A DNA stretch of 64,000 nt, from contig JAQOWU010000008.1 in assembly GCA_030867685.1 (NCBI GenBank), positions 310,001-374,000 of the forward strand, written 5' to 3'. The position numbers and the translations under genes are program-made. Positions 5,631 through 36,548 of this stretch are shown here, in pieces. The notes under the pieces are model-generated. The model saw only the letters and a program-made list of their open reading frames with translations. It searched no databases and was not told where the DNA came from. The DNA comes from Wickerhamiella versatilis (lineage: Eukaryota). The number at the start of each line of letters is the position of its first letter. The first letter of the stretch is position 1.

Positions 5631-6098
5631 TTATTTGCCCTTGCGAACAACGCCGTTAACACCACCACGACGGCCAGTACTGTTTGTGTGCTGACCACGC
5701 ACACGGTAACCCCAGTAGTGTCGGAGACCACGGTGCAAACGCATACGCTTCATACGCTCAATGTCATCACGAAGCTTGGTATCAAGCTGGTTAACAAGCA
5801 AATGCTGATCCTTACCATCGGTGGTGTCGCGTTGCCTATTAAGGAACCATCCAGGGATTTTGAAGTCACCAGGGCTCTGCACGATGGTGATAATGCGCTC
5901 AAGTTCTTCGACAGTAAGCTCACCGGCACGCTTCGCCATGTCGACATCGGCCTTCTTGCAGACCAAGTTGGCGTAACGAGGGCCAATACCACGAATAGTG
6001 GTGAGAGCATACATAATCTTAATGTTACCGTCGACGTTAGTCGACAGAAGACGCAGAATGTGCTGGAAGTTCCCCTTTTCCGTGACCACCAAACTCAT
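5631..6098 (-). CDS. RPS18: 40S ribosomal protein S18 (uS13), intronless
   Basis: [38 protein letters not shown]; strong codon bias. Confidence 0.97.
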
Positions 6099-27696: not shown

Positions 27697-28497
27697 TTAG
27701 CTTGGATAATATTTAGAGTCTTCGTTGACTTCCTTTGCTGGATCAGAATTAAATCTGGCATTGGATCTCATTTGAGGTATTTGCATATGTGGCTGGGTGG
27801 GCACGTTACCAGGCATATAATTCCGGGGGTGTGCTGGCGGCATACGCATTTGACCTTGTGCTTGTGCTTGTGCTTGCGCTTGTGCCTGTGCCTGTGCATG
27901 CAATTGTGCCTGTACCTGAGATTCTGCCCGCATTCGGCGTACGGCTTCAGCCTGCATTCGCTGCACCGTCTGTGGGTCTGGAATGAAATAGTCTGGGGCT
28001 CTAGGTGACTCAAATCTTCCCACATTTGGCTGCATATAAGGCACCACGACCTGTTTGGTCCGGCGTGACAATGAACCCTCGTCACTAGAGTAGTCCATAT
28101 CAGAGGCCATATTTTGAGCATCACGGAATGCTTCATCTTCTGCTCGAAGGATATCTTTGTTAAGACGGGTACGTCTGGGCCAATATTCCTTCCATAGGTC
28201 TAGACGATTTTTTCTTGTGGAATTAAGGAATTTATTGAACCCAGCAGCTGAATGTCTCGCCGAAAGCTCATCCTTAATTTCCTGGAAATCATCATATATG
28301 ATATCACCAACAATATCACCTCCAGGGGTATAAGGCATACCCACTTTTGCCATCAATGGCGAATACTTGGGTACCGGCTGCGGTGGGGGAAGTTGATGTC
28401 TTTCTATGGTAGAAAGGGCAGCAACCGCACTTGGGGGAAGATCATTTCGAGCATAAATGAAGTCATGGGGGGCCCCATTACGAGGAACTTGTTGCAT
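27697..28497 (-). CDS. Uncharacterised protein with (QA)n and Q/P/M-rich C-terminus; start uncertain (ATG 28497 or 28551)
   Basis: Long ORF filling the CDC123-YIF1 gap; the longer ORF-track start overlaps YIF1 and is unlikely. Confidence 0.6.
   Translation of the reverse strand: MQQVPRNGAPHDFIYARNDLPPSAVAALSTIERHQLPPPQPVPKYSPLMAKVGMPYTPGGDIVGDIIYDDFQEIKDELSARHSAAGFNKFLNSTRKNRLDLWKEYWPRRTRLNKDILRAEDEAFRDAQNMASDMDYSSDEGSLSRRTKQVVVPYMQPNVGRFESPRAPDYFIPDPQTVQRMQAEAVRRMRAESQVQAQLHAQAQAQAQAQAQAQGQMRMPPAHPRNYMPGNVPTQPHMQIPQMRSNARFNSDPAKEVNEDSKYYPS
27856..27920 (-). repeat. Coding hexamer repeat (Gln-Ala)n
   Basis: TTGTGC/CTGTGC tandem units on the + strand encoding QAQAQAQAQAQAQ. Confidence 0.85.
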
Positions 28498-28559
28498 TGC
28501 CTGACGGTATAGACCGCTGACAGATTGCTTAGTCACCGTTGACTTTCGCATATCGAGGA

Positions 28560-29420
28560 ATGCAGTCGCAGTCCCCACCACTGCATCACCCGGTGCCTCA
28601 GCATCCGATACATCCTGCATATCAGGCAAATGCGTATGGAGTACCACCAGTTTCAGCTGCGGTCCCTGAGGCGCCAGCTGGCTTTCCTGTGGATCAGCAG
28701 TTTGGGATTGACATGGGCCGCCACGCGTTCCAGTACGGTCAGCGCTATTTAGGAGAGAATATGGAACGCTATGCATCGAATCTTCCCGTTTTTCGACACT
28801 ATTTCCAAGTCTCTAACAGTTATGTGGTACGAAAAATCGCGTTGATTTTGTTTCCCTGGAGGCATCGCAGATGGACTCGCGATCTTCTACGCAGTGATGC
28901 AACGGGTGCTGTGGAAAGTTACGCTCTTCCCCGGGATGATATTAACAGTCCGGATATGTATATTCCTGTTATGGCCTTCACGACGTTTTTGGTGGTGAGC
29001 GGTTTTGCTCAAGGCCTCAGTGGTGTGTTCCATCCTGAGCAACTGGGTCTTGTTGCATCGAAAAGCTTAGCAGTCATTATATGTGAGATAATATTCCTCA
29101 AAGTTTTTCTGTATTTACTTGGAGCTGGCTCCTCGTCTCTTCTGGACTTCATTGCCTACTCGGGATATAAGTTCATCGGAATCACCCTCGATACATTTGC
29201 GAATGAGATGCCCTCAAAACTTGTAAAGTGGAGTGTTTTCTTTTATACTAGTGCTGCCACATCATTTTTCCTGTTACGAAGCCTGCGGTATGTGGTACTC
29301 CCAGAGATTTCAATCTCCACGGCCACTTTGAATTCCAGCCAGCGTCAGCACCGAATACAATTTTTGTTTGTGTACAGCTTCGTTGTTCAGTTCTTCCTTA
29401 TGTGGTTGCTTCAAACTTGA
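28560..29420 (+). CDS. YIF1: Yif1 ER-Golgi membrane protein
   Basis: HYFQVSNSYVVRKIALILFPW, PRDDINSPDMYIPVMAF, AYSGYKF, FFLLRSLR; first ATG at 28560. Confidence 0.93.
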   Translation: MQSQSPPLHHPVPQHPIHPAYQANAYGVPPVSAAVPEAPAGFPVDQQFGIDMGRHAFQYGQRYLGENMERYASNLPVFRHYFQVSNSYVVRKIALILFPWRHRRWTRDLLRSDATGAVESYALPRDDINSPDMYIPVMAFTTFLVVSGFAQGLSGVFHPEQLGLVASKSLAVIICEIIFLKVFLYLLGAGSSSLLDFIAYSGYKFIGITLDTFANEMPSKLVKWSVFFYTSAATSFFLLRSLRYVVLPEISISTATLNSSQRQHRIQFLFVYSFVVQFFLMWLLQT

Positions 29421-29829
29421 AGTGAGACATGTCAATGCTTAGAGTTCTGGATCATTGATAGTATCAAGATTGCTAATGCGTTTTTTATATGATGTTCCTT
29501 CAGTGATCTTTTGGAACAGTAATATAATGATATGGCAAATATGGGCTTTAGAAAACACTACTCTTCAAAAAAAGTGAAGAACAGAACAGGCCTAATAATT
29601 CACAAGTCTTGAGGGAGATGTGAGGACTTTAGAGGGTGGGCCTATTGCTTGTCGGGAAATTAGTGCTCTTATATATTATCCATACAATGAGGACAATATT
29701 TAGATGGTGACTAGCATAGAATTTAGTCTGCTTGAGGAAAAAGAGTTTGAGATATGATTACTCCTATACAAAGTGTGTTCAGTGCAATGGAAAGATGACT
29801 TCTTGATACTCCTAACCCTAAGACAATAC

Positions 29830-30435
29830 ATGGCATCAGATTGGTATGCCTTGCTTGGGGTGTCGCCAGATGCAGATGATGCTGCCATAAGGAGGGCATA
29901 TCGTCGAGCTGCGCTTAGGTTTCATCCCGACAAGAACAGTGAAGAAGACGCAAGAGAAAACTTTCATGCAATTAGTGAAGCATTTACGGTTCTCACGTCG
30001 CCTGACCTTCGTGGCAAATATGACATTCTGCAGGAACAGGGACAAAGTGCTGAGGTGGATGAAAGAAACGATTTAACTAATTATTTCAGAGCGGATTTAC
30101 AGGAAAGAATGTCTAGGACTCGACACGAGGAGTCCTCATTGAAGAAAGACATTCTTGAGAATTTGAAGCGGGAAGGTTATGAACAACGACGGACCCTTGA
30201 TGCTATGAGAAAGCACAGTATAACTACTAAACCCGATTCTAAGAGTATAAGGACTGTCCGATACGGAAATGGGTCCACGAAAACCTTTACTAGCCTGAAA
30301 GAGGCGAGAGACAATCTTGACGGCTCTAATGATGACTTCGCACGCGTGTTACAATTCTTTCCAGCTCAAAGTTATTCTGAAATTTACGAAGCTGAAACAT
30401 TATCTCGCTTAAAAAAGCGGGCAACTCACCGTTAA
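29830..30435 (+). CDS. CWC23: J-domain protein, Cwc23/DNAJC17-like
   Basis: N-terminal J domain with HPDKN; C-terminal YEAETLSRLKK resembles the Cwc23 C-terminal motif. Confidence 0.65.
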   Translation: MASDWYALLGVSPDADDAAIRRAYRRAALRFHPDKNSEEDARENFHAISEAFTVLTSPDLRGKYDILQEQGQSAEVDERNDLTNYFRADLQERMSRTRHEESSLKKDILENLKREGYEQRRTLDAMRKHSITTKPDSKSIRTVRYGNGSTKTFTSLKEARDNLDGSNDDFARVLQFFPAQSYSEIYEAETLSRLKKRATHR

Positions 30436-30502
30436 AGTACAATTATGGTTTACTCTACATAATGATTTTGCATCTAGTCCTCCTATTAACACGCATAATA
30501 TT

Positions 30503-31372
30503 CTAACTTCCGAGTTTTCGTTTACGAGTTCTTAATACATTACCTTCTCCTTTGAATTTCGATGGTTCCGCGCTATCGATAAGTGGTACCACAGGGAATC
30601 CGAAGAAGAGTTCACCATCAGGCAACTCCAATGCTGGCGCATCTCGTTGGCTGTAGATTGACGTATCGACCTGCGAAACATCAACCTCAACCTTTTTGCC
30701 GCTAAGCTTCACGCCAGTTATGGGCTTTGTGGCAACTTTGTTATATTCCTGCGCCACGCTGGATGCCGGCCCAACAGATGGCTTATTTTCCTTTTTCGGC
30801 TCTGTATATCCAACAGGCGGAGCAAAATCGACCTCAAGGTCTGTTTCAACCACGCAAATACTTTGCCTATCATTTTCTGGTTTCACCTCAAGAACTTTAA
30901 TTTCATAAACTCTGTCGTTGTAACTGATTTGGAAGACGTCACCAACGGTCAACGTGGAAAACTGCCGGAGCGCAGTTTCTAGGACAGCCTTAGGATCAGT
31001 GATTTCCAAAAAAGCGACGCTTTGCGGCTGTATTTTTACAAAAGACCCCAATTCAAGGGTAACACTCGAGATACGGACAAGGCCGCCAAGGCGGTTGCCG
31101 AGAGTTCCGAACATCCAATCCGGAAGATACACACGACCTTCTTCTGCAGTAAATTCCAGGACACCACCATGTGTTTTCTTCTTTGTATCTTCACTACGAA
31201 TCTCAAATAGCATCGGATAAGATATACGCATCATCGTAAGTTTGTAAAGGGCTGAGTGAGGGACATATATTTTACCTCCATGAATGGCTGTGGCTTTCGT
31301 TCCACCGGAACGCATCTGCGAAACCGGATAGCAGCGAAAGTACTGCTTGTAAGACTCCGGGAACAGGTCCAT
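30503..31372 (-). CDS. UFD1: Ubiquitin fusion degradation protein 1 (Cdc48 cofactor)
   Basis: YPMLFE, THGGVLEFTAEEG, FLEITDPKAVLE, ETDLEVDFAPPVGY, SHP-like FKGEGNVL. Confidence 0.95.
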   Translation of the reverse strand: MDLFPESYKQYFRCYPVSQMRSGGTKATAIHGGKIYVPHSALYKLTMMRISYPMLFEIRSEDTKKKTHGGVLEFTAEEGRVYLPDWMFGTLGNRLGGLVRISSVTLELGSFVKIQPQSVAFLEITDPKAVLETALRQFSTLTVGDVFQISYNDRVYEIKVLEVKPENDRQSICVVETDLEVDFAPPVGYTEPKKENKPSVGPASSVAQEYNKVATKPITGVKLSGKKVEVDVSQVDTSIYSQRDAPALELPDGELFFGFPVVPLIDSAEPSKFKGEGNVLRTRKRKLGS

Positions 31373-31460
31373 GTCACAACACCAGAATAAGTCAGCAGAC
31401 TCAGGTCGCCACTTTAGTTAGATGATAAATTCGTTACTGGATATATCATAAATAATATCA

Positions 31461-31880
31461 CTAAATTTCTTCAATGGCGGCATCATCCCTTTGAGAGCGA
31501 ACCTGCATTTCCTCAGCATTGACAGCTGGGGACTGATTGGCCATCGCGATGATTCGAGACTTGTTCTTTGCAAGCTTAATTCGTCTTTCAAAATCAGTAA
31601 ATGTGTTTTGTTCATTATCAATGGTAGGTGGTGACACCAGTGTCGCTAGCGAATCTACCGCTTTTTGCTGTTTTTCGGGGAGATTGTCATTACGCCAAGC
31701 CGCTACCCGGCCTTGCAATACTCCCAAAGCTCGGTAGCGTTCGAATCCTGTCTCCAAGCCAGCCGTTCTTCCTTCAACTATTCCATCCGCTCTGCCCTTG
31801 ACAAGACCCTCATTGTATCCATCCCTTCGACATTCCTGTTCATAATTCAAAATTTCAGAAAATATCCCACTATCACTCAT
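31461..31880 (-). CDS. LTO1: Lto1/ORAOV1 (Yae1-N deca-GX3) protein
   Basis: Gly every fourth residue: DGYNEGLVKGRADGIVEGRTAGLETGFER; assignment versus YAE1 moderately uncertain. Confidence 0.7.
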   Translation of the reverse strand: MSDSGIFSEILNYEQECRRDGYNEGLVKGRADGIVEGRTAGLETGFERYRALGVLQGRVAAWRNDNLPEKQQKAVDSLATLVSPPTIDNEQNTFTDFERRIKLAKNKSRIIAMANQSPAVNAEEMQVRSQRDDAAIEEI

Positions 31881-31973
31881 TACGTAAAATATAACGCTTC
31901 GTAGACCTTTAACTGTCTAAAAAAATATTCAAGAAAAGCTTGTGCGACAATAAAATAATATTGCTAGATTAAC

Positions 31974-32405
31974 TTAGTTAGCATCCTTGAGAGACAGAAC
32001 CTCACCACGGAGACGACGGGCGAGCTCGATGTCCTTCTCCTGGATAGTGACACGCTTGGCGTGAGTGGCGCAAGCATTGGTGTCCTCAAACAGAGAGACG
32101 AGGTAAGCCTCAACAGCTTCCTGGAGAGCACCAATGGCAGAAGACTGGAAACGGAGCTCAGCCTTGAACTCTTGAGAGATCTCACGAACAAGACGCTGGA
32201 AGGGCAACTTGCGGATAAGCAATTCAGTCGACTTCTGGTAACGACGGATTTCCTGAAGGGCGACGGTACCAGGCTTATAACGGTGGGGCTTCTTGACACC
32301 AGAGGTGCCAGGGGTTGACTTGCGAGCAGCCTTGGAAGCAACCTGCTTACGGGGGGCCTTACCACCAGTAGACTTCTTGGCGCGGACGTTCTTTGTACGA
32401 GCCAT
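31974..32405 (-). CDS. Divergent histone H3 (143 aa), not paired with H4
   Basis: [46 protein letters not shown]; altered tail and 6-aa C-terminal extension. Confidence 0.97.
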
Positions 32406-32916
32406 TGTGAGTTAAACTAATTTCCAATGCGATAGTGCCAGTAATTTATATCCCAGTCACTCTGACGTGATCATCTAAAAGTCGACCTAACCCTCATCAT
32501 GAATCATGACCACAGCTACTAATCGGAGAATGCATAGCTCACATCATGATTGACTTGGGCTTCGACACAGTGTGGACATTTCTCATGCTATTGGAATTGA
32601 AGAATGTGCAATATTGTTTTGTCGTTTCTTATTTATTCAATTAACTATTTTCATCATGTATTATTTTATTTAATTTAGTTGATCTGCCAGGAATTTGTTT
32701 GGAGATACTAGTGCAAGTTTAGCCGATGGATATGGCGGCCAAATATGGGCCAAACAAGAGAGGCTGGAAATATAAAAATCTTTAAAAAATGTTGTTGTAC
32801 ATTGTGAACCTCACTTGATCCCATTATGACGCGAACCTGAAGGAGCTGTCGGGTGGGTTTTCCATGGAGTTCATAACAAAGACATATTTCAGGGGAGTTC
32901 TGCCAGGGCAATATGG

Positions 32917-33738
32917 TTACAGGGCTGTCATAGTGAAGTCATGTTCAATAGTTGGGGTAACACTAGCGATAAACTTGAGGAAGACGACAAGATATTGATC
33001 AACTCGCGGCGCAGTTGGTACCTCCTCCCATTCATTGTTGGATTCAGCTGCTTCGTCTATAGCACGCTGTTCTGCTCGGTCCAGAAGCAAGCGCATCACA
33101 CTGGCATGACGGCAAGGATGAATACTTATAAGAGTTAAATTATCTTGGAAGGGTGAGGACTCGATCGTGACGGTTTTATCCTTGTAATCGCCTACAATGT
33201 CATCGAACATACTCTTCGGTGGCAGTGGAGCACCGTCAGCATCGTATCCGGACAAATATATTTTAGGAACTCGATAGGACGTTGAATAAGTAATGTAAAC
33301 ATTGTAGGTCCGCTCGTCCGTATCAACGACAGAATTTTCCGGTATTGCACCCTCTTCCTCAATACCTAGTCCCTCTAATTCTACGTCTGGAACATCAATT
33401 GCCTGCTGCGCGGAGCCTTCGTTATTAGAACTATCTTCAGCGGAAATAATCCAGCCATCTTCACCCTCACCCTCTTTCATCAGGGCATTGTCAACACCCG
33501 TAGCTCTTTGTCGACATGGCACATGTCTGGTTAGAAGCACTTGTTTATCGTGTGGCAAAAAGTCCCGGTTTTTCGATGATGATGCACCTTCCCAGGACCA
33601 AGTGGGGAACTTATCCACAAGATAATCACCTGCGGCAACAAACTCTTCTGGCGTTATCTGTCCCGTTTTTGTGAACGAGCTTGTATGGCTCACTGGCGTT
33701 AGATACTCGCGCAAGTTCCTAATACGCCTGCTCAACAT
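32917..33738 (-). CDS. ATG3: Autophagy E2-like enzyme
   Basis: REYLTPV, GQITPEEFVAAGDYLV, catalytic HPCRHA, RVDQYLVVFLKF. Confidence 0.96.
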   Translation of the reverse strand: MLSRRIRNLREYLTPVSHTSSFTKTGQITPEEFVAAGDYLVDKFPTWSWEGASSSKNRDFLPHDKQVLLTRHVPCRQRATGVDNALMKEGEGEDGWIISAEDSSNNEGSAQQAIDVPDVELEGLGIEEEGAIPENSVVDTDERTYNVYITYSTSYRVPKIYLSGYDADGAPLPPKSMFDDIVGDYKDKTVTIESSPFQDNLTLISIHPCRHASVMRLLLDRAEQRAIDEAAESNNEWEEVPTAPRVDQYLVVFLKFIASVTPTIEHDFTMTAL

Positions 33739-33841
33739 GACCCGAATATATATTACTAATTAAGAGCGTAATGAGGCTTTAATATTATTACATGCAAGTG
33801 AAGGAAGGAAAAAAGAAGGGAAGAAAGGAGGAAGTGCCTAT

Positions 33842-36178
33842 CTAGTTTTGAAATAGGAATTCCATATCACCTTGCGACAACCTATTGAGTGCAGAATCAT
33901 CCATTCCAATTGTCGCGTTGATCATGTTCGCTTTCTTTGCCTGTAGTTCAATAATACGGGATTCAATACTGTCTTCAATAATAAGTCGCGTGATCGTGAC
34001 AGGCCTGTGCTGTCCAATACGGTGTACACGGTCACCACTTTGCCATTCCACGCTTGGATTCCACCATGGATCTAATAAAAATACTTGTGACGCTTCGCAA
34101 AGGTTGAGTGCAACACCTCCAGCCTTTAAGCTAACCAAGAATACCTCAACGCTTGGCGTTTCCATGAAGTGTCGGATTATGGAGTCACGTTGAATGGGGC
34201 TCATGGAGCCCTGAAGTTTTACTGTGGAAAACCCCGCGCGGGCCAGTCTCCATTCTACTAGGTCAAGCATGGACGTGAATTGAGAGAATACGATGGACTT
34301 AATGGTTTGCCGATCACTACGCATCCGGAAAAGTTCCTCGACCAGTGCTTCAATTTTAGTCGACGAGCGCCATGTGTTGTCCATTGTAATCCGATTCACA
34401 ATAGAACCTTTATTCTTGTCTGATGAATTAATCTCAACAGAGGGGGCTGTGAGGTCAATGGTAAGAATAATATGGCATACAGGGCATTCTAGATCCTCCG
34501 GTGAGCCATCCCAACCTTCTACGTATTCCTTAATACACATTCGGCAAAAGGTATGGTTACACTTTGATTTAATTGGATCTTCCGCCTCATCGTCACAGAG
34601 CTTACACACAAGGCTCTCATCTAATTCCGAGGAAGCAATTGCACGACGAAGCACTAAATCAGGATGGTCAGCAATCTGTCTCATTCTAGTAATGAGTGAA
34701 AATATATTAGCATAGTTGTTGAGAACTACACCTTGATTGACATAGGTAGAAAACTGTCGCCTTGAATCGCTGAAAATGCTCGTGTAGAGGTCTTTTTCCT
34801 CTTGATTAAAGTAGTCACGACGGACGGTAACCACCCTCGGGGGCAATCCCAGGTCGTCCGCACGTTCCATCTTCGTCCGGCGAAGCATGATTTGCCTAAG
34901 AAGTAAACGCATACGACGCATGGCAAAGTCTGTTTCCCCCTGAATCCTTTGAATATGTTTTAGGAGGGAATGATTGAAGTAATTTACGTGTTGCATAGCA
35001 ACATGTCCACAGAACAGACATTTCTGACGCTCAACACGCCACTCATGGGACGTACAGCTACATTTCGTGCAGAAGTACTGACAGAACGGATCTATTCGCA
35101 AAAATCTTAGAAGGGAATAAAGCTCCCCTATCCTGTTCTGGAGAGGAGTACCACTAAGACAGAGGCGGTAACTCGAATCCAACAGAAACACAGCCCTGCT
35201 TGTCCCGGCCTGTCTATCCTTGATATTATGAGCTTCATCGAGGATGACGCGATGAAAATGTATCGTGTGAAGAGGAGAGGGTAGACGGACTTTTTCACCT
35301 TTCCGGGTAAATCCAGAAGACTGCCGCCTATAAACAGACTCGACAACAGCATAAGTGGTCAAAACCACATCATATTCACGTATTTCGTCTGTAGACTCGG
35401 TACGGTTAGAGCCATGGTAGACTAATATTTTAAGAGCATCTCCAGCAAATTCTTCGATCTCATTACGCCATTGCATGACAGCCACTGTAGGTGCTACCAC
35501 CAGTATTGGACCACTACGTGGGAGTTCATCGCTCAAAAACAATGCAATGGTTTGAATAGTTTTGCCCATTCCCATCTCATCAGCAAGGATACCACCATGA
35601 TATTTAGACTTTTCCTGCTCAACTAGCCAATGGAGCCCTTCTTTTTGAAAAGGAAGTAAATTGCACTTTAATCCCGGTGGCTGCGCCATTTGTTCAAATT
35701 TATGAGGGGGCTCGTTTTCCAAGTCCTCGAACACTGAACGAAGTTCTGGATGATTTTTACGTAGCCCATCTTCCATAGCATTGAAACGTTTTACAACATT
35801 AGGGGTGGGATCTTTCTCTTTCTTCGGCTTGCGCTGGCGGCGACGAGGTCTCTCGGCAGGCGGTTCGGGCTCCTCTTTGGGTTCTTCCTGGGGCCCTTCC
35901 TGGGGCCCTTCCTGAGGCTCCTCTTCCATCTTATTTGGGGATGAATCCTTAATTTCTGCATCCGAGCTGTTTTCCTCTGTTTTGGTCAAATCAATTTCTT
36001 CAATGGGAGATTCAGTGGAAGAATGCGAGGCAACAAATTCGGAGTCTGACTCGGAAGTGGAATTCGACTCCGAATCAGAGTTAATTGCCACAACACGTCG
36101 TCTTCTTTTAGGTTTGGGTGATTTCTCCGATGGACTTGGCCGGATAAATCCTCCCTCTTCTGTCTCAGAAGAACTCAT
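33842..36178 (-). CDS. RAD16: Rad16 SNF2-family ATPase with RING finger (global-genome NER)
   Basis: [65 protein letters not shown]; first ATG at 36178. Confidence 0.95.
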
Positions 36179-36462
36179 CCCTAACAAGACGAGAGGTTTA
36201 GACTATTACAAATGATCTAATTAGATGAATTCGATCTTTCGACTGCACTGTGCAAACTGCTCTAGCTTGTATTAAAACTGACCTATAAGAAATGTAGTTC
36301 CGTATCTGTCACGCAGCTGTAGATCGTTGGATTCATATGTTTAACTTAATCCCTTTCTTTTTATCTCACCACCCTTGACAAGCTACGCAAAGGATAATCT
36401 GTTAGTTTTGCTAGAAATAAAAGTGTTAATGTACATCAACGACTTTAATGCGAAAATTTCCT

Positions 36463-36548
36463 GTGAGCAACGCTATAGAGGAAAAGACGTCAAGTGCCAT
36501 GCTTCGTTGTGATTCGCTCTTCTTACTAACTGGCGACATATATTCTAG
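36463..36548 (+). other. Probable intron directly before ATG 36549
   Basis: TACTAAC at 36524-36530, TAG acceptor at 36546-36548, candidate donor GTGAGC after ATG-CGA-AAA-TTT-CCT (in frame). Confidence 0.55.

Follow-up and report, generated by a model that had tools for sequence, protein, structure and literature searches.

A strongly derived histone H3 encoded by an unpaired gene is probably the bulk H3 of a Wickerhamiella/Starmerella yeast

We report a histone H3 gene of a Wickerhamiella/Starmerella yeast that lies outside any H3-H4 cluster in a stretch of 64,000 nucleotides (from here: the window). The gene is probably an unpaired copy of the bulk H3 of this species, which would belong to a strongly derived lineage, and not a special variant. 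At least three dispersed genes would encode the same H3 of 143 residues. In this derived lineage, the histone fold and every major modifiable lysine appear to be preserved. Its fixed changes would be R49Q in the helix at the DNA entry/exit site, L109A and I112T where helix alpha-2 ends, and acidic residues at positions 121 and 125, which flank K122 on either side. Moreover, the C-terminal ER(S/A) would have been swapped for a short hydrophobic-then-charged tail.

Histone H3 is among the slowest-evolving proteins of eukaryotes and is treated as essentially invariant in budding yeasts. H3V-CTG is given as the only H3 variant described in ascomycete yeasts (PMC6703697). A 2025 study counted the Wickerhamiella/Starmerella yeasts among three lineages of yeasts that evolve faster and have fewer genome-stability genes, and it reported hypermutator-like biology for this clade (PMC12629084). 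A literature search yielded no description of the present H3 lineage in titles, abstract openings or relevant passages (supplements aside), and section 16 and three further passages of Haase et al. (PMC10917516) contain no mention of protein divergence.

The H3 reading frame is intact (Table 1). Its product matches the Pfam family Histone (PF00125) with an E value of 5.7e-45 over residues 9-133, and a search of solved structures returned 199 matches, of which the best 60 are all H3, with chains from yeast as well as animals. The top match is the yeast H3 4kud_A with 232 bits, aligned over residues 1-135, and the elements of the histone fold (alpha-N, alpha-1, L1, alpha-2, L2, alpha-3) fit the H3 models. 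Hence, the assignment of a real histone H3 ORF to this position, made initially from the letters of the DNA, is confirmed. A CTG codon of the ORF falls on a conserved leucine (VSLFED), so that the standard genetic code applies. An AlphaFold2 monomer of the window H3 computed from a 12-row alignment was poor (mean pLDDT 52.9) and uninformative as to the placement of the C-terminal extension.

Substitutions were read from the alignment to 4kud_A and from an alignment of 12 sequences; all positions follow the canonical numbering. The tail is of the H3 type, contains ARTK and is aligned to H3 from residue 1, with the changes Q5N, T6V, R8K, L20V, A29T, S31G and G33S and one inserted residue. The core carries R49Q, A75S, D77E, T80A, D81E, L109A, I112T and glutamates at 121 and 125, and the C-terminus continues after R134V and S135L by 6 added residues. 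Thereby, the near-invariant residues R49, L109, I112 and R134 are replaced by Q49, A109, T112 and V134, while the lysines K4, K9, K14, K18, K23, K27, K36, K56, K79 and K122 are retained. Every substitution named in the sequence-only reading was found in these alignments, as were the lysines at 4, 9, 14, 27, 36, 56 and 79 for which it had claimed retention. The residue inserted between K4 and K9 is present as well, yet it is not peculiar to this gene: it also occurs in the canonical-type H3s P0108, P0105, P0111 and P0254, which indicates that the extra residue is, as judged from these proteins, inherited and not new to the window H3.

Table 1. Positions of the H3 gene, its promoter elements and selected codons within the window
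Feature	Position	Strand	Description	Evidence
Histone H3 CDS	31974..32405	minus	143 codons plus TAA, intron-less	ORF/translation, PF00125, 4kud_A alignment, codon bias
C-terminal codons VLSLKDAN	31977..32000	minus	R134V, S135L and 6-residue extension	alignments; paralog contig ends; P0242-P0244
Codons 111-114 (A-C-A-T)	32064..32075	minus	canonical 109-112, with L109A and I112T; end of helix alpha-2	
Codon 51 (CAG)	32253..32255	minus	Gln at canonical position 49, alpha-N helix	alignments
TATAAA	32445..32450	minus	-45 from the ATG	
Two copies of the octamer TCATGATG	32495-32502 and 32542-32549	minus	promoter; -97 and -144	
Minimum 3' UTR	31920..31973	minus	contig edge, so the true end may differ	contig of run X16

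The codon usage of the gene is extreme. All 16 lysines are encoded by AAG and the 15 arginines by CGT (12) or CGC (3), and the effective number of codons is 35.5, against a range of 50.4-61 in the remaining 32 long ORFs of the window, so that the bias is the strongest among the 33 ORFs compared. The pattern resembles that of the ribosomal protein gene RPS18 (5631..6098, minus strand), in which AAG accounts for 9 of 11 lysine codons and CGT/CGC for 16 of 18 arginine codons. The earlier statement of a strong codon bias as in RPS18 is thus borne out.

Upstream of the start codon, the TATA-like element noted in the initial inspection was found as a TATAAA sequence (Table 1). Farther upstream, the two copies of TCATGATG may constitute a candidate factor site; a 14-mer related to this octamer is located at 32651-32664. 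No Spt10-type site was detected near the H3 promoter, and its 31 matches in the window against 28 expected are at chance level. The closest match, at 32831-32846, contains one mismatch.

The genes flanking H3 encode a Yae1_N protein and ATG3, and the neighbourhood also contains UFD1 and RAD16. A search in all six frames of the 64 kb window with motifs for H4, H2A, H2B and a second H3 returned nothing, and the divergent pairing with H4 is absent at this copy, in agreement with the earlier observation that no H4 gene is adjacent. In the same region, a 359-aa ORF without Pfam match (27697-28776, minus strand) overlaps the start of YIF1 (28560-29420, plus strand) by about 200 nt. The nearest named match of the RAD16 protein is from Wickerhamiella sorbophila (75% identity, with 87% of the query covered), and other RAD16 matches were obtained at 70-77% and one at 99%. 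The proximity to W. sorbophila places the organism in the Wickerhamiella/Starmerella clade.

The description of the gene as solo holds for the locus, the window containing no other histone motif, and fails for the genome, in which at least two further H3 copies were detected. Contigs of four sequencing runs were compared with positions 29500-36500 of the window at a threshold of 80% likeness, a comparison whose reach ends at DNA that is less than 80% alike. The genome run X1 contained 8 records on this region in total, 5 of them exact and 3 divergent with unlike flanks. The divergent records cover 31981-32232 with 34 other letters, 32064-32405 with 31 and 32214-32412 with 28; none of the three contains an indel, their nucleotide identity to the ORF is 86-91%, and 52 of the 73 changed places are transitions. 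Each of these matches occupies one end of its contig (7,309, 177,097 and 2,707 nt), and from there the sequence continues into unlike flanks. The depth of the three contigs (15.5-18.4) is to be compared with 12.7-14.4 for the window locus. The exact contigs break inside the ORF at short common pieces with a depth of 34-34.5, about 2.6 times that of the locus, which fits the existence of extra H3 copies. Together, the contigs suggest that the same organism has two or more additional H3 genes elsewhere in its genome.

The ends of the paralog contigs bear on the protein encoded by these copies. Read in frame past position 31981, a contig end in X1, X11 and X15 gives Ala-Asn-stop, and past position 31993 a contig end in X15, a close relative, gives Ser-Leu-Lys-Asp-Ala. 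Both repeat the extension of the window H3 with 6 synonymous codon changes and without any replacement, suggesting that the extension is carried by other copies and is under purifying selection. Moreover, the protein cluster of the window H3 at 90% consists of one member sequence that occurs on 15 contigs; since paralogs differing by few residues would add members, the single member fits an identical protein. From the difference counts, the two short contig ends and the size of the cluster we infer that the paralogs encode a protein identical to that of the window gene. The suggestion of homotypic tetramers as a trait specific to a variant is weakened accordingly, because, if all copies specify one protein, every tetramer would trivially be homotypic.

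X15 differs from the window at 64 letters out of 2,536 and at 60 out of 3,510 on the flanking genes (29500-36130), and this close relative carries the same set of H3 paralogs. One X15 contig joins position 32069 to 32259 and thereby skips 189 nt of the H3 ORF; we discarded it as a likely chimera of paralogs arising during assembly.

None of the 24 runs is recorded as RNA, and our hints of expression come from the structure and depth of contigs, of which depth is a poor measure of expression. The runs containing the stretch include, among others, two genome-like runs of the same organism and several food-fermentation metagenomes. In X11, which is from the same sample as X1, the H3 piece specific to the window copy has a depth of 2388 compared to 138-244 for the neighbouring genes, and in X15 a near-identical H3 piece reaches 1032 compared to 30-50 for the neighbours. 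Among the matches listed (8 of 9 records for X11 and 8 of 46 for X15), these pieces end near the ATG and coverage resumes at 32624 and 32621, respectively, leaving about 32413-32620 uncovered, a stretch that is bridged in the genome run X1. Furthermore, X16, a run labelled as another organism, contains a contig of 337 nt corresponding to 31920-32249 with 2 other letters, with the flanking genes uncovered; in this run, the H3 message of the yeast seems to be a minor admixture. These contigs provide a reasonable hint that the window H3 gene is highly transcribed.

Two readings had been offered for the gene initially, a rewired core H3 and a lineage-specific variant. The copies, the protein cluster, the codon bias and, as no more than a hint, the contig depth favour the former and speak less for the latter. 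If it is a variant, several genes would encode a lineage-specific H3 beside a canonical H3-H4 pair, to be deposited in particular regions or at particular times like H3V-CTG in Candida. The position of the window copy outside an H3-H4 cluster, as for C. albicans HHT1 (PMC6703697), the lack of an Spt10-type site near its promoter and the canonical-type H3s of related Dipodascales (the four proteins that have the K4-K9 insertion) would suit such a variant, and a canonical copy with less than 80% likeness in its DNA would have escaped our comparison of contigs. Yet the extension is present on at least three copies, the codon bias is at the level of ribosomal protein genes, none of the 8 X1 records resembles a further, more distant H3, and two or three H3 genes in total are usual in yeasts (PMC10917516, PMC6703697). 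We therefore consider a variant of this kind unlikely. Counted against the assignment as bulk H3 is the report by Haase et al. (PMC10917516) that Starmerella, like Yarrowia, has one H3-H4 cluster, which makes the status of the extra copies less certain.

The relatives of this protein are few. A search with the whole protein gave no match above 89% identity among the best 120 of 8000 scored, those listed being canonical H3s or fused models. When the search was ranked on residues 96-143, it led to three proteins from public assemblies that cover the extension: P0242 (161 aa), P0243 (153 aa) and P0244 (153 aa). Common to these and the window H3 are Q49, the motif NACATH, the acidic residues at 121 and 125 and the C-terminal extension, which in the three proteins is of the type RG-x-hydrophobic-hydrophobic-x-x-K-[DE]. 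Their loop 1 contains 7-9 inserted residues, whereas that of the window H3 is canonical in length, and in their tails the A-R-K-S context of K9 is gone, with ARTK, GKxPRK, PRKS and one stretch of 12 residues kept. For P0243, too, the best 60 solved-structure matches are exclusively H3.

A maximum-likelihood tree of 17 H3s separates the window H3 and P0242-P0244 from the 13 canonical sequences (support 100/99). The window H3 is 76-79% identical to P0242-P0244 and the least derived of the four; to 12 ordinary H3s its identity is 82-86%, and to the divergent P0252 it is 79%. Among stored H3-like proteins, Q49 is found in 4 of the 186 having that motif (R49 in the other 182), NACATH in 4 of 212 (NLCAIH in 201), and the C-terminal extension is confined to the window H3 and P0242-P0244 among all 215.

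A profile search of 1.84 billion representatives returned canonical H3 models and mis-modelled fusions only, with Q49, NACATH, the extension or a long loop 1 in none of its 139 new proteins, and a back-translated motif of 10 residues shared with the relatives had no match in JGI metagenome contigs. A metagenome scan for the alpha-N motif with Q49 gave three loci (L001, 65-529; L002, 3-443; L003, 7318-8079). These were rejected as kin of the yeast type, as they are divergent H3/CenH3-like proteins of a non-yeast-like kind without NACATH or this C-terminus. An odd C-terminus goes together with a long loop 1 in one of them, another resembles CenH3, and the reading frame of the remaining one continues beyond the fold, for which an intron may account. 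The H3 of W. sorbophila was absent among the matches ranked on the C-terminus, hence the derived H3 may be confined to a subclade.

More tentatively than the assignment as bulk H3 of the one species, we entertain the possibility that in a whole branch of these yeasts a derived, partly CenH3-like H3 lineage took the place of canonical H3 in every nucleosome. Its traits would be Q49, an altered H3-H3' region and a new C-terminal tail, joined in the more derived species by the insertion in loop 1 and the loss of the K9/S10 context. If so, few bulk H3s known from fungi would be as divergent as this one, and the replacement may have to do with the fast evolution of the clade and its smaller complement of genome-stability genes.

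Centromeric H3s (CenH3s) are characterized by a tail that is not alignable to H3, a longer loop 1, replacement of the alpha-1 glutamine (LPFQRL), loss of R49 and an extended C-terminus. That the window H3 is itself a CenH3/Cse4 or a derivative of one is very improbable. Two of these traits, the loss of R49 and a hydrophobic extension after RG, are present; P0242-P0244 have 7-9 additional residues in loop 1, and the three metagenome genes with Q49 are all non-canonical and H3-like. Against this, the tail is H3 residue for residue, with ARTK, K9, K14, K18, K23, K27 and K36, the alpha-1 glutamine stands in an unchanged LPFQRLVRE, loop 1 has its canonical length, the structure matches of both the window H3 and P0243 are all H3 among the 60 shown, and the gene exists in several copies, has a strong codon bias and is abundant in RNA-like assemblies. 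On the H3-type tail, the intact alpha-1 glutamine and the canonical loop 1 we rejected a centromeric identity, and the earlier statement that this is not Cse4/CENP-A stands, supported also by the structure matches. The idea of a decaying or neutral extra copy, to which the unpaired position and the roughly 15% of residues differing from canonical H3 might have lent weight, is equally implausible and was rejected, given the intact frame, the strongest codon bias of 33 long ORFs, derived residues common to three relatives, retention of the extension in the paralogs through synonymous changes and coverage by RNA-like contigs.

If the window gene represents the bulk H3 of the species, consequences for the nucleosome would be expected. 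In the alpha-N helix, T45, R49, R52 and K56 serve to organise the final 13 bp of DNA on the nucleosome; the first three also contact Set2, and both K36 methylation and the repression of cryptic transcription depend on them (PMC6706414, PMC7449698). With glutamine 49 in every H3, the DNA ends or last turns would be held less tightly, and Q49 nucleosomes would present a changed alpha-N surface for Set2 to read. The proposal of looser DNA ends and an altered K36 read-out resulting from R49Q, which had been put forward from the sequence, appears reasonable in view of the work on Set2 and the nucleosome (PMC6706414); an altered read-out of K4 and K79 may be considered as well. The glutamates at 121 and 125 flank K122 near the dyad and may weaken the DNA contact there. 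A109 and T112 would lie at the end of alpha-2, adjoining the H3-H3' four-helix bundle, and the new hydrophobic-then-charged C-terminal tail would be exposed on both faces of every nucleosome.

An everyday H3 with R49Q, a changed end of alpha-2 and an added tail would, if true, amount to a natural experiment on what the nucleosome core tolerates. It would also offer a test case for the read-out by Set2, Dot1 and Set1 co-evolving with the histone, and another for the question whether loosened DNA ends accompany the hypermutator-like biology of the clade (PMC12629084).

Comparison with known systems underlines both the conserved and the derived character of the protein. With the canonical fungal H3s, such as S. 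cerevisiae Hht1/Hht2 or P0108 of Trichomonascus vanleenenianus, the window H3 has in common the fold, the length class, the lysines and LPFQRLVRE. It differs from them by R49Q, L109A, I112T, E121, E125, R134V and the extension of 6 residues, and its changes also cluster around K4-K9, K27-K36 and K79. The likeness to CenH3 consists in the missing arginine at position 49 and the extra C-terminal residues, a long loop 1 being found only in the relatives, whereas the H3-type tail, the alpha-1 glutamine, the canonical loop 1 and the fold region, which is almost the same as in H3, set the window H3 apart from CenH3. H3V-CTG, encoded by C. albicans HHT1, is likewise a lineage-restricted yeast H3 located outside the divergent H3-H4 clusters; it differs from the co-resident canonical H3 at positions 31, 32 and 80 only and is the less abundant form (PMC6703697). 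In contrast, the window H3 differs from canonical H3 at about 20 positions and by its extension, and it seems to be the product of the further genomic copies as well.
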